Part shown: piece by piece, positions 15,879 to 43,070 of the stretch
Position numbering within the stretch: the first letter of the stretch is position 1
Layout: every line of letters starts with the position of its first letter
The notes under the pieces: generated by a model
Seen by the model: the letters and a program-made list of their open reading frames with translations, nothing else
What the model was told of the DNA's origin: nothing
The model's database searches: none
Translations under genes and position numbers: made by a program
Source of the DNA: Parcubacteria bacterium RAAC4_OD1_1
GTDB lineage: Bacteria; Patescibacteriota; Minisyncoccia; Phycocordibacterales; UBA9973
DNA: 64,000 nucleotides
Direction of reading: 5' to 3'
Assembly: GCA_000505065.1 (NCBI GenBank)
Contig: AWSN01000001.1
Coordinates: 559,929-623,928 of the forward strand

Positions 15879-15884
15879 TAGTAC

Positions 15885-17074: not shown

Positions 17075-17225
17075 GTTAGTTATCAAGAGTATGGCGAGAG
17101 TATTGGCTCAATGACCCATCAGCAACCTGCAGAAACAAGGTGCTAAATCCAACCAAATAGTGGAAACACTATATGGAAAGATAAGACTAGTCATCTATCT
17201 TTCCTCTTATTAGAGGAATTTTTTA
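17075..17225 (+). promoter_or_regulatory. SAM-I riboswitch with intrinsic terminator expression platform, upstream of metK
   Basis: TTATCAAGAG...GGCGAGAG..TGGCTCAATGACCC..AGCAACC...GGTGCTAAATCC...AAGATAAGA matches the SAM-I core; then hairpin cctcttattagagg plus T6. Confidence 0.8.
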
Positions 17226-17238
17226 ATTCAAAAATAAT

Positions 17239-18204
17239 ATGAAGAAAACAGCAGAGTGTGTAAGTCCAATGCATCCAGATAAAATTTGCGATTTCATTGC
17301 AGATAATATTTTAGATGCATATCTAGAAGAAGATAAAAATAGTCGTTGTGCCATTGAAGTCATGGGAGGCCATAACCTTATTACAATAAATGGAGAAGTA
17401 ACATCAGGAGCTACCCCAGATATAGAAAAAGTAGTAAAAAGTTTAGTGGGTAATAATTTCAAGGTTATTTGTAATATAGTTAAACAGAGTCCAGAAATAG
17501 CTCGAGGTGTAGTTTCGGGTGGAGCTGGTGACCAAGGGATAATGAAAGGTTATGCTACAAGTGAAACCTCTTCCCTTATGCCATTAGAGTATGAACTTGC
17601 TAGAAGTTTATGTAATTATATCTATGATAAATATCCTTATGATGGAAAAACTCAAATTACTACAGAAAATGGATGTATTAATACGATTATTGCCAGTTTT
17701 CAAAATGCCCCCAAAAAAGAATTGGAAAAACTTGTTATGGAATGGTTTAAAAAACATGGAACAAAATCAAATAAAATATTTCAATATGAGGTATTTATAA
17801 ACCCAGCTGGAGATTGGTCTTTAGGTGGTTTTGATGCAGACACAGGACTTTCTGGTAGAAAGCTTATTGTTGATAACTATGGACCAGAAATACCTATTGG
17901 TGGTGGGTCATTCTCTGGTAAAGATTATACAAAAGTTGATCGTTCAGGTGCTTATATGGCTCGTAAAATAGCAGTTGATCTTCTTAAAAAACATAAAGCA
18001 AAAGAGGTCCATACTAAACTAGCATATGCTATTGGTAAAGCAGAACCAGTAATGGCAGTAGCTAGTATTGATGGACTTGAAATAGAAATTAAGGGTTATG
18101 ATTTAACACCCAAAGGAATATATGAATACTTAAATTTACAAGAAGTAAAATTCTCTAAAACTTCTAACTGGGGACATTTTGGAAGAGATTTCACTTGGAA
18201 TTAA
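17239..18204 (+). CDS. metK: S-adenosylmethionine synthetase, compact form (321 aa)
   Basis: SPMHPDKICDFIAD (GHPDK motif), GGAGDQGIMKGYA, IGGGSFSGKDYTKVDRSGAYMARKIA. Confidence 0.85.
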   Translation: MKKTAECVSPMHPDKICDFIADNILDAYLEEDKNSRCAIEVMGGHNLITINGEVTSGATPDIEKVVKSLVGNNFKVICNIVKQSPEIARGVVSGGAGDQGIMKGYATSETSSLMPLEYELARSLCNYIYDKYPYDGKTQITTENGCINTIIASFQNAPKKELEKLVMEWFKKHGTKSNKIFQYEVFINPAGDWSLGGFDADTGLSGRKLIVDNYGPEIPIGGGSFSGKDYTKVDRSGAYMARKIAVDLLKKHKAKEVHTKLAYAIGKAEPVMAVASIDGLEIEIKGYDLTPKGIYEYLNLQEVKFSKTSNWGHFGRDFTWN

Positions 18205-18228
18205 GAATTGGTGATATAATCATAAAAT

Positions 18229-18735
18229 ATGAGTTATATAAAATATTACAACTTGGAACAATATATATTCCAAGATGTTGGACCAAATTTTAGAAAGACA
18301 GGTAAAATTACCATAGAGGATTTTTTCTGTATAGTAATTTGGAAGGCAAATAGAGCTAAAACCAACATAAGAAAAAAATTATCTAAAAATACGACACTAA
18401 GTAAATCTATAATAAGTATTTCAGATGATATATATAATGCCCATTCAAAAGAAGAAAAACTAGAGATAATGATAAAGAAATGGAAGTTTGGATTTCCAAT
18501 GGCTACAGCTATTTTAACTGTATTATATCCAGAAGATTTCACTGTATATGACTATCGAGTACGAGGACAATTAAAAATAGAAAATATTTATAGCGTAGAT
18601 AAATATTTTAGTAAGTTTTTACCAAAAGTTAAAAAATATGCAGATTCTTTGGGTGAAAATTTAAGGAATACAGATAAGGAATTGTGGGGAAAATCTTTCT
18701 ATGAAGATCTTCAAAAACTAATAAAAAATGATTAA
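18229..18735 (+). CDS. Hypothetical protein; paralog of 41051..41659; possible HhH-GPD-like DNA glycosylase fold
   Basis: 168 aa; LEIMIKKWKFGFPMATAILTVLYPEDFTVYDYRV aligns with LEILKKCFNNSLVGSSKILHFINPDKFAIWDSRV of the other gene and loosely with Nth LPGVGRKTANVVL...IAVDTHIFRV. Confidence 0.35.
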   Translation: MSYIKYYNLEQYIFQDVGPNFRKTGKITIEDFFCIVIWKANRAKTNIRKKLSKNTTLSKSIISISDDIYNAHSKEEKLEIMIKKWKFGFPMATAILTVLYPEDFTVYDYRVRGQLKIENIYSVDKYFSKFLPKVKKYADSLGENLRNTDKELWGKSFYEDLQKLIKND

Positions 18736-19444
18736 TGCTAACCTACTAAACGATAGAATAAAAAACTTTTTTGGATACGGTAGTCTAGATTCTACTGTCT
18801 GGTTTGTTGGTATGGAAGAAGGATTAAACCCAGGTATTGATGTAAAAGAATTAGAACTTCGTTTTCTTTCAGCATTTGGGAATGTAACTATTGATATGAG
18901 AAAAGATATGTCTAGGTTAGAAGGACATATGAAATGGTTTAAAAAAGATTCTCCAATACAAGCAACTTGGAAATATCCTATTGCTCTATATCTGTATCTT
19001 AAAAATAATAGAATCCCTACAAAAGAAGAAATTAGAGAACATCAAGGATTAGTACTTGGTGATAAAGAAAAGAAAGAAAGCACAACAATAGAATTAATGC
19101 CATTACCTTCAAATAAAGCTAACCAATCTACTTGGTTATATAAGAAATATAATGTTCCTGGTTTAAATTCAAGAAAAGAATATCTTGAAATGTATAAACC
19201 AGAAAGGGTTCAGAAATTAAAGAAACTAATAGAGAAGCACCGACCTAAACTAGTTATATTTTACTCTCTTACTTATTTACCAGAATGGACCGAGATTATA
19301 GGTGTTAATCCAAAAGAAATAACGAAACAAATGTATTTTATTAAGAAAAGTAATACTAGCTTTTGCATATTACCTCAAGGAGCTTCCCACGGTATGTCTT
19401 ATACAAGAGTTTATGAATATGGAGATAAAATAAAAACTCTCTAA
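18728..19444 (+). CDS. Hypothetical protein
   Basis: 238 aa ORF, no recognised motif. Confidence 0.4.
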   Translation: MINANLLNDRIKNFFGYGSLDSTVWFVGMEEGLNPGIDVKELELRFLSAFGNVTIDMRKDMSRLEGHMKWFKKDSPIQATWKYPIALYLYLKNNRIPTKEEIREHQGLVLGDKEKKESTTIELMPLPSNKANQSTWLYKKYNVPGLNSRKEYLEMYKPERVQKLKKLIEKHRPKLVIFYSLTYLPEWTEIIGVNPKEITKQMYFIKKSNTSFCILPQGASHGMSYTRVYEYGDKIKTL

Positions 19445-29606: not shown

Positions 29607-29745
29607 TTTTATATTTGAAATATTTTAATAAACATTAAATATTTGTTTAAAATTATACAATGAAAACATTTTTCCTTGTATTATCTATCTATGTGTGTTA
29701 ACCTGGGAATAGGGTCGTATTTTGCTAGTTAATTTGAAAAACATT

Positions 29746-29853
29746 ATGGACGAAAATACACAAAACACAAATGAGACAACAGATACACCAGTAGTTTCAG
29801 AAGAAACAACTGAAGAAGCTACTCCTGAAACAACAGAAGAAGCTCAACAATAA
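29746..29853 (+). CDS. Possible 35-aa highly acidic peptide
   Basis: MDENTQNTNETTDTPVVSEETTEEATPETTEEAQQ; followed by a strong terminator. Confidence 0.2.
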   Translation: MDENTQNTNETTDTPVVSEETTEEATPETTEEAQQ

Positions 29854-29870
29854 AAATAATTTATTTTTAT

Positions 29871-29905
29871 AAAACCCCTCTCTATCTTATGCTAGAGAGG
29901 GGTTT
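29871..29905. terminator. Bidirectional terminator (cccctctct...agagagggg)
   Basis: 9-bp GC-rich stem between convergent genes. Confidence 0.7.
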
Positions 29906-29910
29906 GCGTT

Positions 29911-31479
29911 TTATTCCTCGTCTTTAATTTTTGGTAATTTAACAAAGAAAGAAGCTCCCTTGTCACGACCTTCTGATTCTACCCAGATTTTACCACCAAT
30001 CTTTCCCAATACAGTTTTTGATAAATAAAGTCCGATTCCCATACCTTCAGTATGAGCTTTTTTACCTTCATCTGATCTATAAAAATTAGTAAATATATAT
30101 TTTCTATCTTTTTCTTCAAGTCCTATACCCGTATTTTCTATTTTAATTATTATATTGTTTTCATCTGGGTGAATAGCCTCAATTTCTATTTTGCCACCTT
30201 CTTTGTTGTATATTATTGCATTGTCTATAATCGTCTGAAATACAAATTTAAGTTTATTTTCATGAGCAAATACAAAATCTTCAAAATTATGAATAGGGGA
30301 TACATTTATTTTTTTTATTTTCATTATTTCATTACTCTCATCTATTATTTTTACTATCATATCTCTCAGATTTATTTTTATTAAATGATTTTCAATTACT
30401 TTTCTGTCATAATCAGCCACACTCACAAGTAGGTTTGTAAGGCTTATAAGGTTGTTGGCTGATCTTTTGATCCCCTCCACATCTCCTTTTAAATTTTCTG
30501 GTATTGATTTAATCAAATCCTCACTATACCATTTGATGGCTGTTAGTGGTGTCCTAAATTTATGAGTAATTACTTTGATGAATTCATATTTAAGGAAATC
30601 TGATTCTCGTATTTTTTTCCAAAAGAACAAAAGACCAGATGTTATTATAAATGCCATCAAAATAGAGGAAACCCATCTAGGGAAGTTTGTGCTACCTTGT
30701 ATTATTAGAGTATTTATATAATTTAAAAGAACTAGCATTAAACCAAAAACAGCACTTGTGATTATATAAATAAATGATTTTTTGGCAATAATTTTTACAT
30801 CCATAAGTTCATATTGGACTGCAGCATAAGTAAGAGGAATAGCAAAAAGTGGAATAAAAAGGAATGCCCAAAGAGGGTTTACTTGTATATTATAAACAAG
30901 CAAAAAGTCTATTGAACCAAATAGGTATCCAAAGAAAAGAGCTATTCCAAAATATTTAATTCTATTTTTTTCAACAAAGTTTGCTATTTTATAGGCTTTC
31001 CATAATATATAAAAAGAATACACCACCATTAAAAAGAAAAATATGAGCATAAGGAAATATTGAGGACCTGCTTCATAATAATTTGGAAAATACATTTTTG
31101 GTTCTGACGTTAAAAGATATTTTAGAGGATTTAAAATAAAATATATTACGAGCCCAATCCCTATAGTATAGAAACTAATAATAATTTTTCTTTGTTCTTT
31201 TAATTGTTTTATAAAAGCAAGTGTTGTATGAGTAGTAAAAACAGGAAGAAGTGTCACTATGACGTTAAACATAAGAATTCTCCTTGAAAGTTCACTATCA
31301 TATACGGAAACCCCAATTATTTGAGATAATTCAAATATGATAGTACAGAAAAGTGCCATAATGAGAGCCATTTTAGCTACTCCTTTTTCTGCTTTTAAAA
31401 AAAGGAAAATTATCATATAAGACGATAATAAAAAACTAAAGAAAAATAATAAATTGTGCATTAATAAATTTATATTCAT
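29911..31479 (-). CDS. Sensor histidine kinase with large N-terminal polytopic membrane domain (orphan: no response regulator adjacent)
   Basis: 522 aa; ~8 TM helices; H-box HKFRTPLTAIKWYSEDL; HATPase_c GMGIGLYLSKTVL...KIWVESEG. Confidence 0.8.
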   Translation of the reverse strand: MNINLLMHNLLFFFSFLLSSYMIIFLFLKAEKGVAKMALIMALFCTIIFELSQIIGVSVYDSELSRRILMFNVIVTLLPVFTTHTTLAFIKQLKEQRKIIISFYTIGIGLVIYFILNPLKYLLTSEPKMYFPNYYEAGPQYFLMLIFFFLMVVYSFYILWKAYKIANFVEKNRIKYFGIALFFGYLFGSIDFLLVYNIQVNPLWAFLFIPLFAIPLTYAAVQYELMDVKIIAKKSFIYIITSAVFGLMLVLLNYINTLIIQGSTNFPRWVSSILMAFIITSGLLFFWKKIRESDFLKYEFIKVITHKFRTPLTAIKWYSEDLIKSIPENLKGDVEGIKRSANNLISLTNLLVSVADYDRKVIENHLIKINLRDMIVKIIDESNEIMKIKKINVSPIHNFEDFVFAHENKLKFVFQTIIDNAIIYNKEGGKIEIEAIHPDENNIIIKIENTGIGLEEKDRKYIFTNFYRSDEGKKAHTEGMGIGLYLSKTVLGKIGGKIWVESEGRDKGASFFVKLPKIKDEE

Positions 31480-31562
31480 ATATTAAATTGTATCATAATG
31501 ACACTTTGACTACAAAGTATAAATGTGTGTTTATCTTTAAAATAGTTTATAATATCTTCTGT

Positions 31563-32045
31563 ATGAATAAGAATAATAAATTAAAAGTCTTAATACTTCC
31601 CAATATTCGTTCGGCGATAAATGTCGGAGCGATTTTCCGTACTGCCGATGCTCTTGGTATAGATATGGTATATCTCGTAGGGGTGACTCCAAGACCTACA
31701 GATAAATTTGGCAGAATCCAAAAAGATATTAAAAAAAGCGCCTTAGGGGCTGAAGAATTTGTAAAATGGGAATATAAAGAAAAATTACTTCCACTTTTAA
31801 ACAAACTTAGAAAAGATAATTATTTTATTGTGGCGATAGAGCAAGGTAAAAATTCTAAAGATTATAGAAAAATAAAAATAAAAGAAAAAACAGCTTTTAT
31901 TCTTGGAGAAGAAGTTTATGGTATAAAAGAAAATATTTTAGATAAATGTGATGCAATAGCTGAAATACCTATGCATGGTAAAAAAGAGTCCTTAAATGTA
32001 TCTGTAGCCTGTGGGGTAGCATTATTTAGGATGATGTATCTGTAA
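31563..32045 (+). CDS. TrmH/SpoU family RNA 2'-O-methyltransferase
   Basis: ILGEEVYGIKENIL, IPMHGKKESLNVSVACGVALF motifs; likely start MNKNNK at 31563. Confidence 0.75.
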   Translation: MNKNNKLKVLILPNIRSAINVGAIFRTADALGIDMVYLVGVTPRPTDKFGRIQKDIKKSALGAEEFVKWEYKEKLLPLLNKLRKDNYFIVAIEQGKNSKDYRKIKIKEKTAFILGEEVYGIKENILDKCDAIAEIPMHGKKESLNVSVACGVALFRMMYL

Positions 32046-32046
32046 A

Positions 32047-32265
32047 TTATCGGAGTGGGTAGCTTACCGCCTCCTCATAAACTGGTTTTATAAGAGGAGT
32101 AGAATCTTCACCGTATCTGGTACCTCCTGTAAGAATCCATATTACAAAAATAATAATTAGAAATATTATAACCTGTAAACCAAATGGCATTTCACCGCCG
32201 TTATAATTTTTGAATTTTTTATTAGACATAAATATATTTATATAAATTTTTGATGTGTGTTGCAA
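32047..32265 (-). CDS. Small membrane protein
   Basis: 72 aa, one TM. Confidence 0.3.
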   Translation of the reverse strand: MQHTSKIYINIFMSNKKFKNYNGGEMPFGLQVIIFLIIIFVIWILTGGTRYGEDSTPLIKPVYEEAVSYPLR

Positions 32266-33176
32266 AAGTGAGCACTGCGACCATTTATAACTTTTCTTAT
32301 TATAACACCTTTACAATTTTTTTGTCCGCATTTATCTCCTTTTTTCTTATAGACATTGTGGTGATTTTGGAAATTTCCCCTTTCCCCATATATGTTTCTA
32401 TAATCAGACATTGAATCTCCACCGAAATCTATTCCTTTTTTCAAGATGTTTTTCATATTCTCAAACATTTTTTTGAAATCCTTTTTATTCATATTGATTG
32501 GTTTTGATTCTGGATGTATTCCTGAAGCCCACAATATTTCGTCAGAATAAATGTTGCCAATACCGGAAATAATATGTTGATCCATAAGTATAGTTTTTAT
32601 ATTTTTATTTATTTTTATTAGTCTTTCTGTAAATTTTTTTAAATCAAAGTCTTTATCAAGTGGTTCGGGTCCTAGATTACAAATCCCATGATTTATTTTA
32701 TCTTCGTCATTTTCAAGCAAGGTGACTTTCCCAAATTTTCTACTATCACTCATTACTAAATGTTTATTATTGTTTAGAGAAAAAACCACATGTACAAATC
32801 TGTTGTATTTATCATGGAGAGATTTCTTTTCATTTTCATCTGGTATCCATTTTTCTACTTTCCTGTTAATACTTATTACTTTATTATATCTCCCATAGAG
32901 TAAATGCCCAGTCATTTTTAGATGAATAAGTATGGTTTTGTTATTTTGTAGGTGAATCAATATATTCTTTGCTTTTCTTTCTATCCCTATTATCTTTTGT
33001 CTAATTATTTTTTTCTTAAATTTTTTAAAAAATATATCATTTTTGATTGTGTTTTTAAATTGTTTTATTTTTTGATCTTTTTTTGCCAAATCTGTCCAAA
33101 CATCAGAAATAACAAGACCCCTTACAGTCTTTTTAAGTCCATTTACTGTTGTTGTAACTTCTGGGAGTTCTGGCAT
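32238..33176 (-). CDS. mutM: Formamidopyrimidine-DNA glycosylase (Fpg/MutM/Nei family)
   Basis: N-terminal MPELPEVTT (catalytic Pro2, Glu3), C-terminal zinc finger C..C...C..C. Confidence 0.8.
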   Translation of the reverse strand: MPELPEVTTTVNGLKKTVRGLVISDVWTDLAKKDQKIKQFKNTIKNDIFFKKFKKKIIRQKIIGIERKAKNILIHLQNNKTILIHLKMTGHLLYGRYNKVISINRKVEKWIPDENEKKSLHDKYNRFVHVVFSLNNNKHLVMSDSRKFGKVTLLENDEDKINHGICNLGPEPLDKDFDLKKFTERLIKINKNIKTILMDQHIISGIGNIYSDEILWASGIHPESKPINMNKKDFKKMFENMKNILKKGIDFGGDSMSDYRNIYGERGNFQNHHNVYKKKGDKCGQKNCKGVIIRKVINGRSAHFCNTHQKFI

Positions 33177-33181
33177 AAGTG

Positions 33182-33757
33182 TTAATGGTTATTTAAAATT
33201 CTTAGAGCTTCTTTTATTTTTTCGTTAGTTTTTTCTATTTCAGGTGAAATTTTCTTTACTACTTCGCGAGCTTCTGTTTGTGAATATCCAAGAGATTTAA
33301 GTGCTTCTATAATATCTCCTTCATCACGAAGAGATTTCTCCCCATTTTCATTTTTGTAAGACTGGAGCTTGTCTCGTAATTCGACAACAATTTTCTCAGC
33401 AGTTTTCCTTCCTATACCAGAGACTTTGTTTAAATAGCTTGTATCTCCTGTGGATATTGCACGAGCTAGATTTTCTACTGGCGCTATATTTAATATTCCC
33501 AGAGCAGATTTTGGTCCAATCCCAGACACAGAAAGCAACATTTCAAAAAATGATAAATCCTCATTATTTATAAATCCGTATAAGTCTATAGAATTTTCTC
33601 GGACAGCAGTATATATAAAGAGTATTACTTCATCTTCCTCTTTGGATTTAGATAAGGTTTCATTTGATACATATACTTTATATCCAACACCAGAGACATC
33701 AATAAGGATAAATTTATCCCCAGTAAATACAATATTTCCTTTTAATCTTCCTATCAT
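33182..33757 (-). CDS. ruvA: Holliday junction DNA helicase subunit RuvA
   Basis: 191 aa; MIGRLKG...GVGYKV OB domain, HhH pair, C-terminal domain. Confidence 0.8.
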   Translation of the reverse strand: MIGRLKGNIVFTGDKFILIDVSGVGYKVYVSNETLSKSKEEDEVILFIYTAVRENSIDLYGFINNEDLSFFEMLLSVSGIGPKSALGILNIAPVENLARAISTGDTSYLNKVSGIGRKTAEKIVVELRDKLQSYKNENGEKSLRDEGDIIEALKSLGYSQTEAREVVKKISPEIEKTNEKIKEALRILNNH

Positions 33758-33850
33758 ATATATGATAATATCAAATATTGATATTTTTTGCTATTTCTGG
33801 TATTGTAAAGAAGTCTCAGTCTATTTAATTAATATTAAGTATATAAAATT

Positions 33851-34105
33851 ATGCCAATTACAAAATCAGCAAAAAAGGCACTAAGATCATCTGCTAAAAA
33901 AAGAGCTGTTAATGATCGTAACAAAAAGGTAGTCAAAGAATCAATTAAAGGTATTGAAAAGCTTGTTAAAGAAAAGAAAAAAGATGAAGCAAAAAAGCTT
34001 TTACCAAAAGCTTACAGTGCTATAGATAAAGCTTATAAAAAAGGAGTTATAAAGAAGAATAATGCATCTCGCAAGAAATCTCGTCTTTCACGAATTACAA
34101 AATAA
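33851..34105 (+). CDS. rpsT: 30S ribosomal protein S20
   Basis: 84 aa; MPITKSAKKALRSSAKKRAVNDRNKK. Confidence 0.85.
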   Translation: MPITKSAKKALRSSAKKRAVNDRNKKVVKESIKGIEKLVKEKKKDEAKKLLPKAYSAIDKAYKKGVIKKNNASRKKSRLSRITK

Positions 34106-34115
34106 GTATTTAGAA

Positions 34116-34145
34116 ACAATTCCCCGATTTATCGGGGAATTGTTT
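34116..34145 (+). terminator. Rho-independent terminator (aacaattccccgat..atcggggaattgtt)
   Basis: Perfect stem plus T-run after rpsT. Confidence 0.7.
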
Positions 34146-34156
34146 ATTTTGAGTAG

Positions 34157-34441
34157 GTGAGTATAATTATGTATATGCAAGATCTTATATTTTTTTATGG
34201 AGAGGGGTGCTCGTATTGTGTAGATATGGAAGAGAAAATTGATACTCTAATCAAAGAAGGTTTTAATATTTCTAAATTAGAAGTTTGGAACAATATGAAA
34301 AATGATGCTTTTTTAGAAAAGTTAGATAATGGAGAAGAGATTTGTGGTGGTGTGCCTTTTCTTATAAATAATAAATCTGGTAAAAGGATTTGTGGAGAGG
34401 CAACACTTGACGAACTTCGTTCTTGGGCCAAAGGAGAATAG
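34157..34441 (+). CDS. Glutaredoxin/thioredoxin-fold small protein (CxxC)
   Basis: FFYGEGCSYCVDMEEKI. Confidence 0.6.
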   Translation: MSIIMYMQDLIFFYGEGCSYCVDMEEKIDTLIKEGFNISKLEVWNNMKNDAFLEKLDNGEEICGGVPFLINNKSGKRICGEATLDELRSWAKGE

Positions 34442-34462
34442 TTATTAATAATCTAAAAATTT

Positions 34463-35716
34463 ATGAAAAAGTTTATTGTTATCTTTTTGTTTGTATTATC
34501 ATTTTTGCAATTTGCAAAAATTTCTTATGCCGAAGAATTAAATGCTTATTTTTTCTATGGGCAAGGTTGTCCTCACTGTGCTAAAGAAGAAGTTTTTCTC
34601 GATAGTATCAAAGATAAATACCCCACACTTCAAATAAATACTTTTGAAGTTTATTACAATAAAGAGAATGGGGAATTGATGTCTAAAGTTTCAAAGATTT
34701 TAGGAGTAACTGCAAACGGTGTCCCATTTTTTGTGCTTGGTGATAAATCCTTTATTGGATTTTCAGAAAGTGTAACTCCAAGGGAAATTGAGACAAGGAT
34801 TAATGAATGTATAGTAAATACTTGTTCTGATTCTATAAAATCTTTAATCATTAAACCTCAAGTTATAACAGAAATTCAAAAAGAAAATATTGAAATAAAA
34901 AGTAGTGAAGTAGTAGATACAGCAAGTGTAGAAATAAAAACAGAAGGTAATATTAACAAGGAGAAAGAAAAAATTATAGATGTCCCATTTTTAGGAGAAT
35001 TAAATGTTTATGATTTTTCCCTACCTTTTATTACACTTGTCCTTGGACTTTTGGATGGGTTTAATCCTTGTGCTATGTGGACCCTCATCTTTCTTATAAG
35101 TTTGCTTCTTGGAATGGAAAATAAAAAAAGAATGTGGACACTAGGGATTGCCTTTATTGTTGTTTCTGGTGCAGTTTACTTTTTGTTTATGTCGGCTTGG
35201 CTAAACCTCATTCTTTTTCTTGGGTTTATAGCAATTGTTCGGATTATCATTGGACTCGTGGCTCTCTTTGGGGGAGGTTACTCACTTCGAGAATTCTTTA
35301 TAAATAAAGAGAATGTTTGTAAAGTCGGGGATGAAAATAAAAAAGAAAAAGTTTTTGAAAGATTAAAAATAATTACAAAAAAGAATAATCTTTTTATTGC
35401 TCTTTCGGGGATAATTTTACTTGCTTTTGTCGTGAATCTGATCGAGCTTGTTTGCTCGGCTGGGCTTCCTGCAGTGTACACACAGATACTTGCTATGAAT
35501 GATTTACCAAAAGCTGGATATTATTTGTATATACTTTTGTATATTTTTTTCTTTATGCTTGATGATCTTTTTGTTTTCATCATAGCGATGGTGACACTTC
35601 GTATGACAGGACTCAGTGGCAAGTATGCAAGGTTTTCTCATCTTATCGGCGGAACCATAATGATCATTATTGGTGTTTTTCTCATATTTAAGCCCGAGTG
35701 GTTGATGTTTGGATAA
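34463..35716 (+). CDS. Thioredoxin-like domain fused to CcdA/DsbD-type membrane thiol:disulfide transporter
   Basis: 417 aa; signal peptide; FFYGQGCPHCAKEE; membrane domain with LGLLDGFNPCAMW and second Cys in SAGLPAVY region. Confidence 0.7.
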   Translation: MKKFIVIFLFVLSFLQFAKISYAEELNAYFFYGQGCPHCAKEEVFLDSIKDKYPTLQINTFEVYYNKENGELMSKVSKILGVTANGVPFFVLGDKSFIGFSESVTPREIETRINECIVNTCSDSIKSLIIKPQVITEIQKENIEIKSSEVVDTASVEIKTEGNINKEKEKIIDVPFLGELNVYDFSLPFITLVLGLLDGFNPCAMWTLIFLISLLLGMENKKRMWTLGIAFIVVSGAVYFLFMSAWLNLILFLGFIAIVRIIIGLVALFGGGYSLREFFINKENVCKVGDENKKEKVFERLKIITKKNNLFIALSGIILLAFVVNLIELVCSAGLPAVYTQILAMNDLPKAGYYLYILLYIFFFMLDDLFVFIIAMVTLRMTGLSGKYARFSHLIGGTIMIIIGVFLIFKPEWLMFG

Positions 35717-35741
35717 AATTATTATTAATTAAAAAATATTT

Positions 35742-36140
35742 ATGAAAAATTCTTATAATTGGTACCAGACTCTTGTGAAGCCCACTTGGGCGCCACCATC
35801 ATGGCTTTTTGGGCCGGTGTGGAGTGTCCTTTATGTGCTCATTGCCATTTCTTTTGGTAGTGTGTTTGTAAAATTCTTCCAAAAGAAAATTCCTTTTATT
35901 GTAATCTTGCCATTTATTTTAAATTTAATTTTTAATTTCACTTTCACTTATTTTCAATTCGGATTAAAGAGTAATATTTTGGCAATGATAGACATCCTCC
36001 TAGTCCTTATTACTCTCATCTGGGCGATGCTCGCTATTTACCCATATATGAAATGGGTAGCACTTATAAACATCCCATATCTTCTTTGGGTTTCTTTTGC
36101 GACAGTTCTCCAAATCACGATTACTGTTTTAAATAAATAA
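35742..36140 (+). CDS. TspO/MBR (tryptophan-rich sensory protein)-like membrane protein, short
   Basis: WYQTLVKPTWAPPSWLFGPVWSVLYVLIAISFG. Confidence 0.55.
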   Translation: MKNSYNWYQTLVKPTWAPPSWLFGPVWSVLYVLIAISFGSVFVKFFQKKIPFIVILPFILNLIFNFTFTYFQFGLKSNILAMIDILLVLITLIWAMLAIYPYMKWVALINIPYLLWVSFATVLQITITVLNK

Positions 36141-36145
36141 TTTAA

Positions 36146-36176
36146 AATTTTAGTAGTCCGACTACTAAAATTTTAA
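36146..36176. repeat. 31-nt palindromic hairpin (aattttagtagtccgactactaaaattttaa), copy 1; acts as bidirectional terminator
   Basis: Identical copy at 37734-37764. Confidence 0.75.
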
Positions 36177-36283
36177 TCTGTGTTATAATTTTACTTTAAA
36201 TAATATGAATTGAAAGAAAAGTATTCCCTCGTTTGTACTATTAATATAAAGGTCGTATTAATAGATATTAAACAACAAATACA

Positions 36284-36670
36284 ATGAATAAAAAAACATT
36301 AGCATTGATAGGGGTTTCGACTTTAGCACTAGGTGCAGTAGTCCTTTCACCGAGCTTTATAGAAGCTTACCGTGGGGACATAAATGTAAAAGGTCCAAAT
36401 TATACAGCCGAGAGACATGAAGCAATGGAGAAGGCTTTTGAAACTAAAGACTTTACAGCATGGCAGAAGCTTATGGAAGGCAGGGGCAGAGTTACACAAG
36501 TTATAAACAAAGACAACTTTGCAAAGTTTGCAGAAATTCACGAGCTTTTAGAAGATGGCAAAAAGGATGAAGCAAATAAATTAAGAGCGGAGCTTGGACT
36601 TGGATTACAAAATGGTATGGGCCAAGGCAAGGGAATGGGCCAAGGTATGGGTAGGATGAATAATCGTTAA
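36284..36670 (+). CDS. Secreted hypothetical protein with C-terminal (MGQGKG)n repeats
   Basis: 128 aa, signal peptide. Confidence 0.45.
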   Translation: MNKKTLALIGVSTLALGAVVLSPSFIEAYRGDINVKGPNYTAERHEAMEKAFETKDFTAWQKLMEGRGRVTQVINKDNFAKFAEIHELLEDGKKDEANKLRAELGLGLQNGMGQGKGMGQGMGRMNNR

Positions 36671-36726
36671 AACTAATTTTAATTCAAAAGCCCTGAAGTG
36701 TCGGGGCTTTGGGTTAAATATATTAA

Positions 36727-37269
36727 ATGTTTGAATACAAAAATAAAACAGATGAAGAAGTTGTCTCTTATGTCCAATCAGAATATCAGGAGTTTTATTT
36801 TGTGATAGTAGATAGATATAAAGACAAGCTCTCCCGCTATGTGGGTTCAATGACCAAGGATGAAGTGAAAACGAGGGATATAGTACAGGAAACTTTTATA
36901 AAAGCATTTATAAATTTAAGAGGTTTTGATAAGAATAAAAAGTTTTCAAGTTGGATATATCGTATCGCTCACAATGAAGCAATAAATACACTCAAGAAGA
37001 ATTATAGAGAAATTCCTTTTGAAGAAGATTTTGATATAAAAAGTGAAGAAGACATTGTTCTTGATTTTGAAAAGAAGGAAATATCAAAAAAACTGGATAA
37101 ATGTATAAATGATATGCCACTTATTTACAGAGAGTCACTCGTCCTTTATTTTATAGAAGAGAAATCATATGAAGAAATAAGCGACATCATCCGTATCCCT
37201 ATGGGGACTGTCGCCACGAGGATTAATAGGGCAAAAATTTTAATGAAAAAAATATGTCAAAAGAATTAA
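36727..37269 (+). CDS. ECF-type RNA polymerase sigma-70 factor
   Basis: Region 2 IVQETFIKAFINLRGF...WIYRIAHNEAIN; region 4 YRESLVLYFIEEKSYEEISDIIRIPMGTVATRINRAK. Confidence 0.8.
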   Translation: MFEYKNKTDEEVVSYVQSEYQEFYFVIVDRYKDKLSRYVGSMTKDEVKTRDIVQETFIKAFINLRGFDKNKKFSSWIYRIAHNEAINTLKKNYREIPFEEDFDIKSEEDIVLDFEKKEISKKLDKCINDMPLIYRESLVLYFIEEKSYEEISDIIRIPMGTVATRINRAKILMKKICQKN

Positions 37270-37733
37270 ACAAAACAACAGAAGAAATAATGGAGAAAAT
37301 AAAAAAGGGGCATATAAAGATGCGCCCAAGAGTTTATTTTGTAATGGGTTACATTCTCACTATATTGGGTGCTGTCTTTTCATTTGTCACTTCTGTATTT
37401 TTTATTGGATTAACTCGGTTTGCGATTCGGGCCCATGGGCCGATGGCAGGGTATCGCTTGGACCAAATACTTTCTAGTTTTTCTTGGTGGATACCAGCAC
37501 TAGCAGTGCTCGGTATAGTCTCCGGAGTTTATATATTAAAGAAGTATGACTTTTCTTACAAAATAAATTTTAAATTATTTATCATCGGACTTTTGGCATC
37601 CATACTAATTGCAGGGTATGTGATAGACCTCACAGGACTAAACGATTCCCTAGCCCGCCGTGGTGGCAAATGGAAAGAGGGGAGGCAATTCCAAAAACTA
37701 AATAATCCTCAAGGGGAAGGGTTTAGGAGATAG
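37254..37733 (+). CDS. Putative membrane anti-sigma factor (overlaps sigma gene)
   Basis: 159 aa, several TM helices, translationally coupled to the ECF sigma. Confidence 0.45.
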   Translation: MSKELNKTTEEIMEKIKKGHIKMRPRVYFVMGYILTILGAVFSFVTSVFFIGLTRFAIRAHGPMAGYRLDQILSSFSWWIPALAVLGIVSGVYILKKYDFSYKINFKLFIIGLLASILIAGYVIDLTGLNDSLARRGGKWKEGRQFQKLNNPQGEGFRR

Positions 37734-37764
37734 AATTTTAGTAGTCCGACTACTAAAATTTTAA
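37734..37764. repeat. 31-nt palindromic hairpin, copy 2 (identical to 36146-36176)
   Basis: Exact repeat. Confidence 0.75.
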
Positions 37765-37815
37765 ATTATTTGGTTTATTTTTATGGATAGGTTATAATAT
37801 AAACACAATTAAATA

Positions 37816-37968
37816 GTTTGATATCAAGAGTATGGCGAGAGTACTGGCTCGAAGACCCATCAGCAACCCTTAGAAATAAGAAGGTGCTAAATCCAGCCAA
37901 TAGCAGAAATGTTATATGGAAAGATAAGACTAGTCATCTATCTTTCCTCATTATGAGGAATTTTTTAA
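37816..37968 (+). promoter_or_regulatory. Second SAM-I riboswitch (~90% identical to the metK copy) with terminator
   Basis: ATATCAAGAGTATGGCGAGAGTACTGGCTCGAAGACCCATCAGCAACC...GGTGCTAAATCC...AAGATAAGA; terminator cctcAttatGagg+T6 carries compensatory changes versus cctcTtattaGagg in copy 1. Confidence 0.75.
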
Positions 37969-37980
37969 TTTAAAAGGTAT

Positions 37981-38064
37981 ATGCAACAATTTTTAATTGC
38001 ACTTGCGATAGTTTTTATTCCTATGGTCTTTGGGGGAATATTATATTTAGTTTATATGAAATAA
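37981..38064 (+). CDS. 27-aa hydrophobic peptide directly downstream of riboswitch 2
   Basis: MQQFLIALAIVFIPMVFGGILYLVYMK; occupies the position metK has after riboswitch 1. Confidence 0.3.
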   Translation: MQQFLIALAIVFIPMVFGGILYLVYMK

Positions 38065-38142
38065 GATGAAAACCCCGTATTTTGGGGGTCCAAGATTAAA
38101 TTGTAAAAAAGTTGGAAGTATGAGAGAATAATAATATAATTT

Positions 38143-39204
38143 ATGAAAAAAATGAAAGTATTAGATCTTTTTTCTGGTGTTGGTGGTCTTAGTTATGGTT
38201 TTAAAATGGCAGGTTTTAATATCGCAGGAGCGATAGATTTTGAAAAATCATTTGTTGAATCAATGAAAAAAAATCATTCACATACAGAAGTATTTTGGGG
38301 TGATATAAGAGATATAGAACCAGAAAAAGTAAAAAATAAAATAGGAAATATTGATATTATAGTGGGAGGTCCACCATGCCAAGGTTTTTCTCTTAAGGGA
38401 CAAAGAAAAGGTCTTGAAGATGAAAGGAATTTTTTATTTAAAGAATACATAAAATATATAGCTTACTTTAAGCCGAAGTTTTTTGTTATGGAAAATGTTC
38501 CTAACATTCTTAGCGAAAAAGATGGTTACTTTAAAGATCAAATATTAAAAGAATTTAATAAATTAGGATATAAGGTTACATATGGTATTTTAAATGCTTC
38601 GGATTTTGGTGTTCCTCAGAACAGAAGAAGGGCTATTTTTTTAGGAACAAGATTAAAAAAAGAAATTGAACTCCCAAAGAGAATTATAAAAGAAAAAGTT
38701 ACAGTTTGGGATGCTATTTCTGATTTAGCATATTTGGATTCCGGAGAAGGATATTTTGAATCAAATTACAAGACAAAACCATTATCAGAATATCAAAAAA
38801 TATTAAGAAAAAATTCTAAAAAATTATTTAATCATCAAGCAACAAATCATTCAGTCATAGCAATTGATAGATTAAAACGAATACCACCAGAGAAAGGAAA
38901 AGAGTATTTACAAGAAAGGATATCTTCTACTTTTGGTCAAACATGGGGAAGATTGGAAAAAAATAAGCAGAGCCCAACAATTGTTACAAGATTTGATACA
39001 CCTTCAAATGGAAAAAATTCTCACCCTTTCTTAAATAGAGCAATTACCCCTAGAGAAGCTGCTAGAATACAATCTTTTCCAGATCATTTTATTTTTTATG
39101 GTAATAAAACATCAGTAAATAAACAAATAGGTAATGCTGTTCCTCCTTTGCTTGGCAAAGCTATAGCAGATAGTATAATAAAGTATATAAGACAAAATAA
39201 TTAG
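38143..39204 (+). CDS. DNA (cytosine-5)-methyltransferase
   Basis: 353 aa; DLFSGVGGLSYGF, GGPPCQGFS, ENV, QIGNAVPP. Confidence 0.9.
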   Translation: MKKMKVLDLFSGVGGLSYGFKMAGFNIAGAIDFEKSFVESMKKNHSHTEVFWGDIRDIEPEKVKNKIGNIDIIVGGPPCQGFSLKGQRKGLEDERNFLFKEYIKYIAYFKPKFFVMENVPNILSEKDGYFKDQILKEFNKLGYKVTYGILNASDFGVPQNRRRAIFLGTRLKKEIELPKRIIKEKVTVWDAISDLAYLDSGEGYFESNYKTKPLSEYQKILRKNSKKLFNHQATNHSVIAIDRLKRIPPEKGKEYLQERISSTFGQTWGRLEKNKQSPTIVTRFDTPSNGKNSHPFLNRAITPREAARIQSFPDHFIFYGNKTSVNKQIGNAVPPLLGKAIADSIIKYIRQNN

Positions 39205-39208
39205 TTTT

Positions 39209-39850
39209 ATGATAAACCAAGTACACAACATAGATGCCTTGAAATTACTAAAAGCTATTAAAGATAAATCAATTGATCTTTTTTTAACAGATATCCCTTA
39301 TGAAAAAGTTAATAAAAAATCAAATGGCTTAAGAAAATTGGACAAAGAAAAAGCTAACACAAAAACATTTGAATTGAAAGATTTTCTTGTTCAGGTAGAT
39401 AGAGTAACAAAAGGAAGTGGATATATTTTTTGTGGAAAGGAACAAGTTTCTATAATTTTTGAATTCTTTGACCAAAAGAAATACACAACAAGATTAATGA
39501 TCTGGGAAAAAACAAATCCAAGTCCAATGAATTGTCAATACTCATGGATGAGCGGAATTGAAACTTTTATTTATTTTAAGAAACCGAACGCTACGTTTAA
39601 TGAACATTACAAAAATAGTGTTTTAAGATTCCCGAATGGTCAAAGCAAGAAACATCCAACAGAAAAACCATTAAAATTATTTAAATATTTAATAGAAGTT
39701 AGTTCTAATAAGGGTGATTTAGTTTGTGATCCATGTGTAGGTTCTGGTACTACAGCTGTAGCTTCTAAAATGCTAAGTAGAAATTTTTTGGTTGGTGATA
39801 TTGATGAAAATTATTGTAAGTTAACACAAAAGAGACTAATTATTAGTTAA
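39209..39850 (+). CDS. Beta-class N4-cytosine/N6-adenine DNA methyltransferase
   Basis: 213 aa; N-terminal LTDIPYE (motif IV variant of DPPY), C-terminal motif I VCDPCVGSGTTAVAS. Confidence 0.7.
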   Translation: MINQVHNIDALKLLKAIKDKSIDLFLTDIPYEKVNKKSNGLRKLDKEKANTKTFELKDFLVQVDRVTKGSGYIFCGKEQVSIIFEFFDQKKYTTRLMIWEKTNPSPMNCQYSWMSGIETFIYFKKPNATFNEHYKNSVLRFPNGQSKKHPTEKPLKLFKYLIEVSSNKGDLVCDPCVGSGTTAVASKMLSRNFLVGDIDENYCKLTQKRLIIS

Positions 39851-39861
39851 TTTTTTATTTT

Positions 39862-41028
39862 ATGATAAATATTAATCAATTATTAAATAAACCAATTGAA
39901 ACCTTATTAGCAGTTTTTTTTAATACCACTAAAAATAAAGAAAATAATTTTGAAGTATGTTCAAGATATCGTCAAACTAAATTTGCTAAATTACCTAAAA
40001 ATTCATATGAACAGACAGCTATTAGTTTATCAAATAAATATAAATTAAATTTCAATTCTAATGGAAAAGGGTTAATTATTTCAATTATTAATAATAATCA
40101 TAATTATGATCTTAATGATTTTTTAAATGTCGTTTATGATTCAATTGTTGTTAAGTTAAATAAATTACCTAGTAATTATTTACTTGATGTTGAAATAGCT
40201 TTAGCTCTATTTATGTTTCGTGGAAGTGTAGATTTTAATAGGAGTTTTTATTCTGTTGATTTAAAAAATCCCACAAAGGATTACATTGATAATTTTTTTA
40301 AGGTTCTTTTATCATCAGATGATTTATTATCTCGTCTAAATTTAAATTTCCGCGAATTACAACCCCAATATGTTGAAGGTAGAAATTTAAGAAACACACA
40401 AGTCAGAATAAACTTAAAGTGGTTTTATGATAATGTGATATTAAATTTTAGTAATATTAATAAATATAAAACAGATATTTTTTTTAAAAATATTGCGAAG
40501 TTAGGAGAAATAAGAAAATATAATATTTTTGAAGAAAGAATAATATTATATAAACAATCTATTTTTGGTAGAAAATTAAATAAAAATGAAATAAATAAAC
40601 TTAGAAATGAATTACAATTTAGTTTAAATGATGAACAAACTAAGGGTAATAAATTTTCTATTAGAAATCAAAAAATTGTTTCTTACGCAAGAGAAATATT
40701 TAATGATGTTTGTGTTGGTTGTAATTATACTTATAATATTAAAGATCGTTCTTTTAAAATGCCACGAAACGATAGATATTATTTTGAGATAAATCATGTT
40801 ATTGCTTATTCTAGTGATTCTGTTGTGGTAGATGTATTAGATAATTTAGTAAAACTTTGTCCTACTTGCCATAGAGCTTTAACACCTGGAAGAGCTTATG
40901 AGGAATTACAAAAAACAATTATAAAAAATATGTTAAATTCTAGAAAAGAAGTAAGTAGATTTGTTGATTTAATGAAACCAAAAGAATTTAAGTCGTCTAT
41001 TGATTATGTATATAAAATGTTGAAATAA
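39862..41028 (+). CDS. Putative HNH-family restriction endonuclease
   Basis: 388 aa after two methyltransferases; C-terminal CVGCNY...YFEINHVIAY...KLCPTCHRAL (C-x2-C / H-N-H / C-x2-C). Confidence 0.6.
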   Translation: MININQLLNKPIETLLAVFFNTTKNKENNFEVCSRYRQTKFAKLPKNSYEQTAISLSNKYKLNFNSNGKGLIISIINNNHNYDLNDFLNVVYDSIVVKLNKLPSNYLLDVEIALALFMFRGSVDFNRSFYSVDLKNPTKDYIDNFFKVLLSSDDLLSRLNLNFRELQPQYVEGRNLRNTQVRINLKWFYDNVILNFSNINKYKTDIFFKNIAKLGEIRKYNIFEERIILYKQSIFGRKLNKNEINKLRNELQFSLNDEQTKGNKFSIRNQKIVSYAREIFNDVCVGCNYTYNIKDRSFKMPRNDRYYFEINHVIAYSSDSVVVDVLDNLVKLCPTCHRALTPGRAYEELQKTIIKNMLNSRKEVSRFVDLMKPKEFKSSIDYVYKMLK

Positions 41029-41050
41029 TTTTCATAATTATTTTTAATAA

Positions 41051-41659
41051 ATGAAAAAAGAAATCCTTGAAATTTTTAAAGAAAATGTTGATATTAATCG
41101 TCTTATGAAAGATGAACAGAATATTAATATTAGTTATAAGGATAACTCATATTTTATTTCATATGTTGAATTTTTAAAATATTTTAAGGATTTAAATAAA
41201 ATAACAATACATAATATGATTATCGGTATAAATTTTACTCATGGATGGATGCCTACTATTTTTGATTTCAGATCTAATAATTTTGATGAAGTTGTTAAAA
41301 TATTAAATAATACCAAACAGGGAATAATTCCTAATATAGACCAGCTAGAAATTCTTAAAAAATGTTTCAATAATTCATTAGTTGGATCTTCAAAGATTTT
41401 ACATTTTATAAATCCAGATAAATTTGCTATTTGGGATAGTCGAGTATTTCGTTATTTAACTAATAAAAAATATGGAATTGATAATTGTAAATATTATTTA
41501 GATTATTTAAAATTTTTTGAATATATAACAAATAAACCGGAATATAATAAAATTCACGAATCAATTATAAATAAAGTTGATTATGAAATGACAAAATTTA
41601 GAACATTAGAACTTATTATGTATATTAAAGGGAAGAAAAATAAATTAAATAAAATATAA
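41051..41659 (+). CDS. Hypothetical protein; paralog of 18229..18735 (HhH-GPD-like motif)
   Basis: 202 aa; SSKILHFINPDKFAIWDSRV region aligns with the island-1 paralog. Confidence 0.35.
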   Translation: MKKEILEIFKENVDINRLMKDEQNINISYKDNSYFISYVEFLKYFKDLNKITIHNMIIGINFTHGWMPTIFDFRSNNFDEVVKILNNTKQGIIPNIDQLEILKKCFNNSLVGSSKILHFINPDKFAIWDSRVFRYLTNKKYGIDNCKYYLDYLKFFEYITNKPEYNKIHESIINKVDYEMTKFRTLELIMYIKGKKNKLNKI

Positions 41660-41856
41660 TAATTATGCATTCAAAAACCTAACTCAAAAAACCAAAAATC
41701 ATAAATTTTAAATTTCAGGGGAAGGAGAATTGAGATCCGCCAAAAGGAAGACCTTTATGATGACAAAATGGTAAATGTCCAAATGGGTGTTTGGTTTTAG
41801 AAACTAGCCACAAGTCCGACTTGTAGCTAATTTTTCTTTTATTAAAGAGCTTTGGG

Positions 41857-42222
41857 TTGAGAGAAGTAATCTGTTTGACTTTTGGGGTGGGTGTGATAAG
41901 GTTTAGAAAAAATACATTGTTTAACTTAAAATTTTTAACTATGAAGGAAATTGTTTTGAACAGTAATGAAGTAAGACTTCTTCGTAAAGTTGAAAAAGCT
42001 GGTTATGGGTTTTTTGTCCCAGTTTCCAGCTTTTTGGAAGAGTTTAAGGACGCTTCTGAAGAAGATGTTCTTCCTGAATTGGTATTGAAAAAGGATGAGT
42101 TTGAAGATGTTGTCGAGATGATAGAAGACTATCTGTGCAATGACGGTCTTTCAGACGAAGATTGGCCATCCAAAGAAGAGGAGTCCGAACTAAGAAACCT
42201 TTTGGAAAGGTTGGAGGCTTGA
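41857..42222 (+). CDS. Acidic hypothetical protein (likely start MKEIVLN at 41941)
   Basis: 121 aa; followed by hairpin aacagggtgttg..caacaccctgtt. Confidence 0.35.
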   Translation: MREVICLTFGVGVIRFRKNTLFNLKFLTMKEIVLNSNEVRLLRKVEKAGYGFFVPVSSFLEEFKDASEEDVLPELVLKKDEFEDVVEMIEDYLCNDGLSDEDWPSKEEESELRNLLERLEA

Positions 42223-42316
42223 AGAGTTTAACAGGGTGTTGCATGTAGTCATACAACACCCTGTTTTTTTGTATTTTTTAAAATTAAAATATTTTTTTGT
42301 GTGATATAATAGATTT

Positions 42317-42760
42317 ATGAAGAAAAACAAATATATAATAATTTTTACAGGGGTAGTGCTTATAGGTGTAGCTTTTGTGTTTTTCAATTCACAGAAATGT
42401 AGTGGTGCAGAATGTGAGGTGAAAGAGATGAGAGTAGAAAAATATGATATTTACAATGAAATGAATCCAGAAACTTTACCCACAAAAGTTTTAAATGGGG
42501 AAGTTGTACTTTTAGATGTGAGAGAAGATTCTGAATGGAGCGATGGCCATATAGAGGGTGCACTCCATTTACCACTTGGAGAAATAAATGAGGAAAGTGT
42601 AATAAATCTTCCAAAAGATAAAGAAATATACATATATTGTAGGTCTGGCAGGAGAGCGGGAGAAGCTGAAACAATATTGAAGTCATTAGGATTTTCAAAT
42701 GTTTTAAACATAGGTGGAATAAACCATTTTGTAGAAAGGGGAGGTAAGTTGGTGAAATAA
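42317..42760 (+). CDS. Rhodanese-domain sulfurtransferase with N-terminal TM/signal anchor
   Basis: 147 aa; active-site loop YIYCRSGRRAG. Confidence 0.75.
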   Translation: MKKNKYIIIFTGVVLIGVAFVFFNSQKCSGAECEVKEMRVEKYDIYNEMNPETLPTKVLNGEVVLLDVREDSEWSDGHIEGALHLPLGEINEESVINLPKDKEIYIYCRSGRRAGEAETILKSLGFSNVLNIGGINHFVERGGKLVK

Positions 42761-42919: not shown

Positions 42920-43032
42920 CGCTTGGTGATGATCGCAGTGTTGTTTTGTTAGCAGACAAAACCACGAGGGGTGGACTGCGAAAATTTCGAGCTACGGCGA
43001 GAAATTATTTGTAGTCACAAGATTGTAAGGAC

Positions 43033-43070
43033 GAGCAAGCAAACTGCTTTGCTTGCGTGCAGGAATCGAA
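43033..43070. repeat. Second copy of the 27-nt hairpin element fused to an inverted tRNA-Arg T-arm fragment
   Basis: gagcaagcaaactgctttgcttgcgtgCaggaatcgaa; 37/38 nt identical to 27522-27559; minus strand reads ttcgattcctgc + acgcaagcaaagcagtttgcttgct. Confidence 0.7.

Follow-up and report, generated by a model that had tools for sequence, protein, structure and literature searches.

A SAM-I riboswitch beside an MnlI-like restriction-modification cassette in Parcubacteria bacterium RAAC4_OD1_1: a probable orphaned metK leader

Why does a riboswitch for S-adenosylmethionine (SAM) stand ahead of a restriction-modification (RM) cassette? The question is raised by a 64,000-nucleotide stretch of Parcubacteria bacterium RAAC4_OD1_1 (contig AWSN01000001.1, positions 559,929 to 623,928; hereafter the window), which carries two SAM-I riboswitches. 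Copy 1 has metK directly 3' of it (17239-18204), the usual placement of this class beside a gene of SAM metabolism. Copy 2 departs from that placement and is followed by a 27-codon open reading frame (ORF27), two DNA methyltransferase genes and a restriction endonuclease gene. We propose that copy 2 is an orphaned, intact metK leader lying beside a self-contained, acquired RM cassette, and that it is not a conserved control element of that cassette. From the sequence comparisons presented here, we put the probability of this reading at about 0.58.

The copy 2 riboswitch and its metK relatives

All Rfam families were scanned against the window with cmscan at gathering thresholds, the gathering score of RF00162 (SAM-I) being 44.4 bits. 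Copy 2 matches this family at 37818-37930 on the plus strand with 57.9 bits (E 8.8e-11, model positions 1-108 of 108), and copy 1 matches at 17077-17187 on the plus strand with 54.5 bits, also over the full model. An earlier note, made from the sequence without database searches, had described a second SAM-I riboswitch ahead of a 27-residue ORF and a complete RM module and had named RF00162 as the test for both loci; both score above the threshold, and the genes are as it described them, a C5 methyltransferase, an N4/N6 methyltransferase and an HNH nuclease. The features of the copy 2 locus are as follows.

37771 to 37798, plus strand: candidate promoter of the copy 2 leader (TTGGTT, 16 nt, TATAAT; -10 element at 37793-37798), a consensus match only
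37818 to 37930, plus strand: SAM-I (S-box) aptamer, a full-length match to RF00162
37918 to 37966, plus strand: predicted expression platform, from a terminator scan and fold energies
37981 to 38064, plus strand: ORF27 (MQQFLIALAIVFIPMVFGGILYLVYMK), from the ORF list
38070 to 38091, minus strand: G+C-rich hairpin after the ORF27 stop codon (terminator scan; -9.2 kcal/mol)
38112 to 38140, plus strand: candidate promoter of the RM cassette (TTGGAA, 17 nt, TATAAT), a 10/12 consensus match only
38143 to 39204, plus strand: C5 cytosine DNA methyltransferase, alternative start 38152 (PF00145, E 2.5e-81; TIGR00675 dcm)
39209 to 39850, plus strand: N4/N6 DNA methyltransferase (PF01555, E 1.4e-26)
39862 to 41028, plus strand: MnlI-like HNH type II(S) restriction endonuclease (PF01844; PADLOC REase_II, E 7e-65, full length; named 'MnlI restriction endonuclease' in nr)
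41051 to 41659, plus strand: 202-residue gene with no Pfam, NCBIfam or PADLOC match

Judged by its sequence and predicted folding, copy 2 has the intact structure of a metK-type SAM-I OFF switch acting on transcription, with a predicted response to SAM. As a riboswitch, it is an ordinary member of a well-known class. The antiterminator (37918-37947, -10.4 kcal/mol) pairs GGAAAGATA (37918-37926) with TATCTTTCC (37939-37947), or GGAAAGAUA with UAUCUUUCC in the other spelling of the same arms. The terminator (-7.6 kcal/mol in the terminator scan and folds) consists of a stem at 37944-37960 and a run of six T at 37961-37966. The two structures overlap and hence compete, and the 5' arm of the antiterminator is shared with the 3' strand of P1. 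Read from the sequence, CUGG in the P2 loop is complementary to CCAG in J3/4, which gives the pseudoknot. In the cmscan alignment the non-canonical pairs are confined to P1, where the fifth pair is lost (GATATC against GTTATC in relatives), and in the leader alignment copy 2 has GG where related metK leaders have the TG of an extended -10 (TGATATAAT). For the structure as a whole we relied on the Rfam model, RNAalifold on ten close leaders having recovered only P2 and P3 after MAFFT misaligned P4 and P1.

S-box leaders of metK are known, for example, in Bacillus and Clostridia. Copy 2 shares with these leaders the full-length model match, the four-helix aptamer with its pseudoknot, and the mutually exclusive antiterminator and terminator of a transcriptional OFF switch. 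It differs from them in that no methionine, cysteine or SAM gene lies 3' of it, ORF27 and the RM cassette standing there instead, and in that it sits in an apparently horizontally acquired block of a Patescibacteria genome.

All close sequence relatives of copy 2 precede metK. A degenerate pattern for the aptamer-core variant retrieved 39 loci from species-representative genomes (mostly labelled Patescibacteria) and 87 from metagenome contigs, and these 126 related loci (numbered with the prefix L) were ranked by identity over leader and platform. The ten leaders closest to copy 2 (73-87% identity) all stand before metK: L139 (86.7%), L032 and L101 (both 85.2%), copy 1 (84.4%), L128, L121, L123, L028, L090 and L031. 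The resemblance is that of a mosaic, in which P3 is identical to the metK leaders of L139 and L128 (22/22), the terminator region is identical to that of L032 (28/28), and P2 is closest to copy 1 and L032 (38/41). The homology to metK leaders stops at the position of the metK start codon, and tblastn of MetK against the window found no metK remnant near copy 2. On this comparison, copy 2 reads as belonging to a family of metK leaders that recombine.

Being such a mosaic, copy 2 is no simple duplicate of copy 1, whose leader and gene occupy the following interval.

17052 to 18204, plus strand: copy 1 with its promoter, SAM-I aptamer (17077-17187), terminator and short-form metK (17239-18204)

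Likeness between the two copies begins at the -10 element, continues past the T-run and ends at the start codon. Their identity is 85% (133/156 aligned columns), below the roughly 90% given in the earlier note, and this value, together with the P3 shared with L139 and L128 and the terminator shared with L032, led us to reject a recent intragenomic duplication of copy 1. The compensated pair that the note had seen between the two terminators is real, and the alignment adds further double changes in P4 (AUAGUG/CACUAU against AUAGCA/UGUUAU) and in the pseudoknot (UUGG/CCAA in copy 1, CUGG/CCAG in copy 2). These compensated pairs separate lineages of metK leaders and therefore record past selection before metK, not in the present context; the argument that copy 2 is kept for its structure is thus weaker than was claimed.

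The inserted block and its contents

The surroundings of copy 2 point to an insertion. Two sister genomes, L142 and L143, encode homologues of the anti-sigma-like protein whose gene lies just 5' of copy 2, at 90-91% identity. By blastn, L142 is collinear with the window over 29672-37739 at 81% nucleotide identity and then diverges; homology resumes at 41733-41799, at 41874-41911 and in the rhodanese gene. The intervening sequence, approximately 37775-41732, is missing from both sister genomes. On the left, it joins the resident sequence between about 37772 and 37790, close 5' of the leader's own -10 element, and the copy 2 promoter region has an upstream part that corresponds, with divergence, to the resident promoter of the hotspot. 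Two features mark the edges.

37731 to 37771, no strand assigned: palindromic terminator-like hairpin just after the anti-sigma gene (-13.5 kcal/mol; repeated), in or just after which the sister homology ends
41733 to 41799, no strand assigned: 67-nt remnant of the 3' end of a DUF1905 gene at the right edge of the block, 92.5% identical to L142 13734-13800, where the gene is intact

By these comparisons, the leader, ORF27, the RM cassette and the 202-residue gene form one horizontally acquired block of about 4 kb, and the DUF1905 remnant appears to be the scar of a replacement event. The G+C content is 0.28-0.29 in the methyltransferase genes, 0.22 in the HNH nuclease gene and 0.20 in the 202-residue gene, and the flanking genes lie above all of these at 0.34-0.39. 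The site itself is variable: 3' of the conserved sigma/anti-sigma pair, the cargo differs among the three close genomes (window 37740-41732, L142 10454-18042, L143 5557-11000), with a MazG-like gene, an SLFN-like helicase and others in L142 and an EcoRI-like methyltransferase, Fic and GmrSD in L143. In both L142 and L143, the breakpoint falls at the start codon of the first gene, behind a conserved promoter-like TTTGTGGGAGAAT. No SAM riboswitch was found in the hotspot of L142 or L143.

These results bear on one of two readings offered in the earlier note, that of a shuffled riboswitch, metK and RM module in which metK had been replaced. Shuffling is the explanation that we favour, given the metK-leader ancestry, the end of homology at the ATG and an insertion specific to the window. 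Replacement of metK in situ, with the riboswitch ancestral at this site, was rejected, as L142 and L143 have other genes and no riboswitch there.

As a separate observation, the hairpin at 37731-37771 is one of two 41-nt perfect palindromes (the other at 36135-36175; 95-97% identical) that flank the block of genes for a 128-residue protein, sigma and anti-sigma; the second copy, at 37731-37771, is absent from L142 and L143.

Where the leader joins the rest of the block, the ATG of ORF27 aligns with the metK ATG of related leaders. The ORF27 segment is T-rich (28% G+C), and its hydrophobic residues follow from this, because T-rich sequence yields hydrophobic codons. By our estimate, a frame of 27 codons stays open by chance about 1 time in 10 at this composition. 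Neither ORF27 nor the sequence 37965-38145 has a homologue by blastn or tblastn in about 150 collected loci, apart from copies of the same contig; the search was confined to those loci, the query being too short for a wider one. ORF27 is thus most likely a fortuitous reading frame formed where a metK leader meets foreign T-rich DNA.

The cassette has the make-up of an MnlI-like type II(S) RM system: an HNH endonuclease homologous to MnlI together with one C5 and one N4/N6 methyltransferase. MnlI recognises CCTC and cleaves at a distance. With the MnlI system the window cassette has in common three genes, a methyltransferase of either chemistry and an HNH endonuclease that is homologous over its full length, and many genomes keep the cassette together as a unit. 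Every homologue of the nuclease at 60-68% identity occurs in a C5, N4/N6, HNH cassette (fused in one case), and these orthologous cassettes stand in unrelated surroundings, a prophage and a viral contig among them. A SAM riboswitch ahead of the cassette is found only in the window, with no RF00162 match near the orthologous cassettes in any of seven independent contexts (0/7).

In each of the seven contexts, a promoter-like sequence, judged by eye, lies within about 60 nt of the start of the first methyltransferase gene. Two of these relatives from the Candidate Phyla Radiation (CPR), L047 and L049, have a promoter-like TGTGGTAGAAT 6 nt before the cassette ATG; in the window, TATGAGAGAAT at 38119-38129, which overlaps the candidate promoter of the cassette, resembles the lineage motif TGTGG[G/T]AGAAT. 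The MnlI-type cassette is thus a self-contained mobile unit by our reading, probably driven mainly by its own promoter just 5' of the first methyltransferase gene. The site at 38112-38140 is the second best in the 5.2 kb scanned, but the total of promoter-like sites equals that in shuffled sequence, and the promoter scan was therefore set aside as evidence of little value. The strict motif TGTGRNANAAT occurs twice in the window, no more than expected by chance.

An extended -10-like sequence, TGTG(G/A)NA(G/T)AAT, was also seen to end 6 nt before an ATG without a Shine-Dalgarno sequence at window 42300-42317, L047 3695-3712, L049 5243-5259 and the first hotspot genes of L142 and L143. The same promoter-to-ATG geometry is present at the first hotspot gene of both sister genomes and at the rhodanese gene of the window, which suggests leaderless transcripts in this lineage.

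The last gene of the block, encoding 202 residues, has no Pfam, NCBIfam, PADLOC or PDB-sequence match and belongs to a large family (1033 representatives). In the window it is part of the inserted block, but relatives lack it next to their orthologous cassettes, and in the phage contigs L147 and L148 it stands alone; it was accordingly rejected as a part of the metK or RM module. The earlier note had called it a paralogue of the gene after the metK of copy 1, which encodes 168 residues. The resemblance comes down to one 36-residue motif (BLASTP E 7e-4), and a profile of 42 members of the 202-residue family gives the 168-residue protein a probability of only 2.6%, so that paralogy is not established.

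Taken in order, the events that we envisage are these. Copy 2 would have begun as a metK leader on a mobile, prophage-like element of Patescibacteria. A block of about 4 kb, with copy 2 at its left end, would then have been inserted in the variable defence hotspot 3' of the sigma/anti-sigma pair. The metK gene would have been lost with a junction at its start codon, ORF27 arising as a by-product of T-rich foreign DNA read from that ATG. At high SAM, the aptamer would close P1, the terminator at 37944-37960 with its U6 tract would form and transcripts would end near 37966. At low SAM, the antiterminator at 37918-37947 would form and transcripts would pass ORF27 into the two methyltransferase genes and the endonuclease gene, because the terminator scan found no plus-strand intrinsic terminator between 37966 and 38143. 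The hairpin at 38070-38091 has its T-run only on the minus strand and is therefore no canonical terminator for plus-strand transcripts. The RM genes may thus receive a SAM-dependent top-up besides the transcripts from their own promoter. Such coupling seems to stem from the juxtaposition of parts in a shuffled mobile block and not from a conserved design.

Possible control of the restriction-modification genes

Could the riboswitch nevertheless have been taken into service? Related riboswitches do precede genes other than metK. The 126 loci represent 104 distinct aptamers, 8 of which come from loci truncated too early to show a first downstream gene, leaving 96 informative. That gene is a short-form metK for 52 aptamers, famA (uncharacterised, 133-146 residues) for 18, famB for 8, famC for 6, famD for 1 and some other gene for 11; non-metK genes, mostly uncharacterised, thus account for 44 of the 96 (46%; examples are L027 5595-6190, L021, L099, L108 and L122). 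All non-metK riboswitches that were tested reach the Rfam gathering score. The famA proteins carry the motif RPELNxFPFNVLF and have no Pfam or PADLOC match; a confident AlphaFold2 model (pLDDT 87.6) gave no PDB match by Foldseek at E <= 0.001. The famB, famC and other genes are often in one operon with famA.

Several observations weigh against the view of copy 2 as an orphan. No obvious decay is seen in the leader, which scores higher against Rfam than copy 1 and has a perfectly complementary pseudoknot. Its orientation is that of the RM genes and no plus-strand terminator intervenes, so that regulatory coupling is plausible, and the internal promoter that would make the cassette independent is a consensus match only, of a kind no commoner than in shuffled sequence. 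Riboswitch-led operons run on the same strand into DNA methyltransferase or RM genes in L027, L030/L077, L099, L108 and L118, where the small genes are followed by Eco57I/MmeI-like, C5, type III Mod/Res, SNF2 helicase plus N6 methyltransferase or Mrr-like plus N6 methyltransferase genes; SAM-dependent control of methylation genes could therefore be a real theme. (A small panel of RM and integrase genes is matched by 18 of the 126 loci, a descriptive count without background.) In addition, an assembly labelled Candidatus Nomurabacteria (GCA_003543255.1) has the arrangement with an identical nuclease, a 241 kb contig from a sediment metagenome carries identical genes, and an identical methyltransferase with the same upstream stretch is present in contigs of three sequencing runs, ORF27 being present in the two that are readable. 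Recurring in this way across an assembly and several samples, the arrangement is stable. Finally, the relatives compared are a limited sample, among which the donor of the block was not found.

The alternative to which these points lend most is that copy 2 has become a regulator of the cassette, low-SAM read-through raising the methyltransferases (and the endonuclease) to keep the genome methylated, and high SAM returning them to a basal level from their own promoter. We consider this unlikely. To the intact, co-directional switch and the recurrence across samples it can add a distance of only 177 nt to the first methyltransferase gene and an order of methyltransferase, methyltransferase, endonuclease with gaps of 4-22 nt. 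However, none of the seven orthologous cassette contexts has the riboswitch, the cassette has a promoter-like sequence of its own, and copy 2 has the ancestry of a metK leader with a junction at the metK ATG. The other CPR examples have a conserved small protein, and not a methyltransferase, as the first regulated gene, and read-through would lift the endonuclease together with the methyltransferase, with no obvious change towards a protective ratio. Thus gating of the RM operon, the other reading in the earlier note, finds no support as a conserved design: the comparison of relatives showed linkage of riboswitch and RM genes in none of the seven contexts, and the sister genomes lack the whole block.

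Slightly less credible to us is a broader proposal, in which the SAM-I riboswitch of Patescibacteria would be a portable sensor of prophages and defence islands, copy 2 coupling a type II RM system to the supply of methyl donor and boosting its methyltransferases at low SAM, with the famA, famB and famC loci that reach methyltransferase or RM genes as further instances. If true, this would be the first RM regulation to sense a cofactor directly through RNA. Dedicated RM regulators include controller (C) proteins, methyltransferase autorepression (e.g. SsoII) and antisense RNAs. Like these, a riboswitch would tune the balance or timing of methyltransferase and endonuclease; unlike it, they respond to products of the RM system itself, by way of proteins or antisense RNAs, and we know of no RM regulator that senses the methyl donor. 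The ORF list holds no controller-type protein upstream of the cassette, ORF27 being the only frame there and hydrophobic. Our literature search returned no paper with both 'SAM riboswitch' and 'restriction-modification', and the association is an unusual one. A partial parallel is provided by the Clostridioides difficile prophages phiCD630-1 and phiCD630-2, in which c-di-GMP class I riboswitches control type I antitoxin RNAs (PMC11477304). There, too, a riboswitch duplicated by mobile elements stands before a non-metabolic target, but the ligand class differs, the regulated product is known and the arrangement is kept in both prophages (PMC11477304).

Further down the scale, and improbable in our judgement, is a silent relic: a leader transcriptionally dead since the junction weakened its promoter, too recent to have decayed and of no downstream effect. 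The GG where all close metK leaders have the TG of an extended -10, the lost fifth pair of P1 and the upstream promoter part contributed by the diverged resident promoter are in its favour; against it, a perfect TATAAT and a TTG-containing -35 at 16 nt are kept, and aptamer and platform carry no disruptive change. Least credible is ORF27 as the real target, a genuine 27-residue membrane peptide (type I toxin-like or a small regulator) with the RM genes as mere neighbours: its ATG stands where a regulated gene would start, with AAGG shortly 5', the peptide reads as one clean hydrophobic helix with K at its end, a hairpin follows the stop codon and small hydrophobic toxins are common on mobile islands, yet the collected loci hold no homologue, T-rich non-coding sequence encodes hydrophobic residues anyway, the frame is short enough to be open by chance (about 0.1 per frame by our estimate), the hairpin has no U-tract on the plus strand, and no antisense RNA or antitoxin for it was identified.

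Mobile metK leaders

The orphaned-leader reading draws support from the mobility of the leader family, of which copy 1 is an example in the window.

12584 to 27480, plus strand: integrative element with tRNA-Lys, integrase, two C5 methyltransferases, NgoFVII-type restriction endonuclease, riboswitch-metK, LOOT RNA, S49 peptidase, second integrase and direct repeat

This element of about 15 kb begins at tRNA-Lys (12584-12657), carries two integrases of the tyrosine type and is bounded by a 49-nt direct repeat of the 3' end of the tRNA (12615-12663 and 27432-27480, 98%). Because copy 1 lies inside it, and not at a housekeeping locus, the only metK of the window is on a mobile element. The encoded MetK is a short form of 321 residues with all three Pfam domains, scoring 249.5 bits against the NCBIfam metK cut-off of 309.4; most riboswitch-linked MetK proteins of these CPR loci have 310-360 residues. 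Elsewhere, L139, whose leader is the nearest to copy 2, and L145, listed as viral in IMG/VR, are one contig, and riboswitch-metK is also present on a further viral contig, L144. RM or methyltransferase genes precede riboswitch-metK in L139 and L121, and an integrase is encoded immediately 3' of it in L139, L128 and L121.

A comparable case is the Streptococcus agalactiae prophage 12/111phiA, where a shortened MetK is encoded beside an endonuclease and an RM system (PMC8223999). The likeness to the copy 1 island, L139 and L144 is that of a mobile element with its own truncated SAM synthetase and restriction genes; the prophage differs in that no riboswitch is reported there (PMC8223999), and copy 2 in that it would have lost metK altogether.

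Two further observations concern the copy 1 element and its surroundings. The LOOT RNA within it (RF03000, 22307-22430, 85.8 bits) has a counterpart in L027 (4470-4590, 84.9 bits), about 1 kb 5' of a riboswitch-famA pair on a Saccharibacteria chromosome, which hints that LOOT RNA travels with the same kind of mobile element. Secondly, a 49-nt element occurs at 27511-27559 and 43022-43070 (90% identical), one copy shortly 3' of the tRNA-Lys att repeat and the other shortly 3' of tRNA-Arg; its minus strand resembles a tRNA 3' end (TTCGATTCCT...) interrupted by a 25-nt hairpin.

What, then, does this locus say of riboswitches in ultra-small bacteria? In these organisms, SAM riboswitch-metK modules travel on integrative and prophage-like elements together with restriction systems. 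The presence of a riboswitch beside unusual genes does not by itself indicate a new regulon, and here the shuffling of cassettes in a defence-island hotspot explains the arrangement best. If part of the non-metK set does reflect SAM control of DNA methylation or mobile-element genes, it would widen the repertoire of SAM riboswitches and would provide a testable tie between cofactor supply and restriction-modification.

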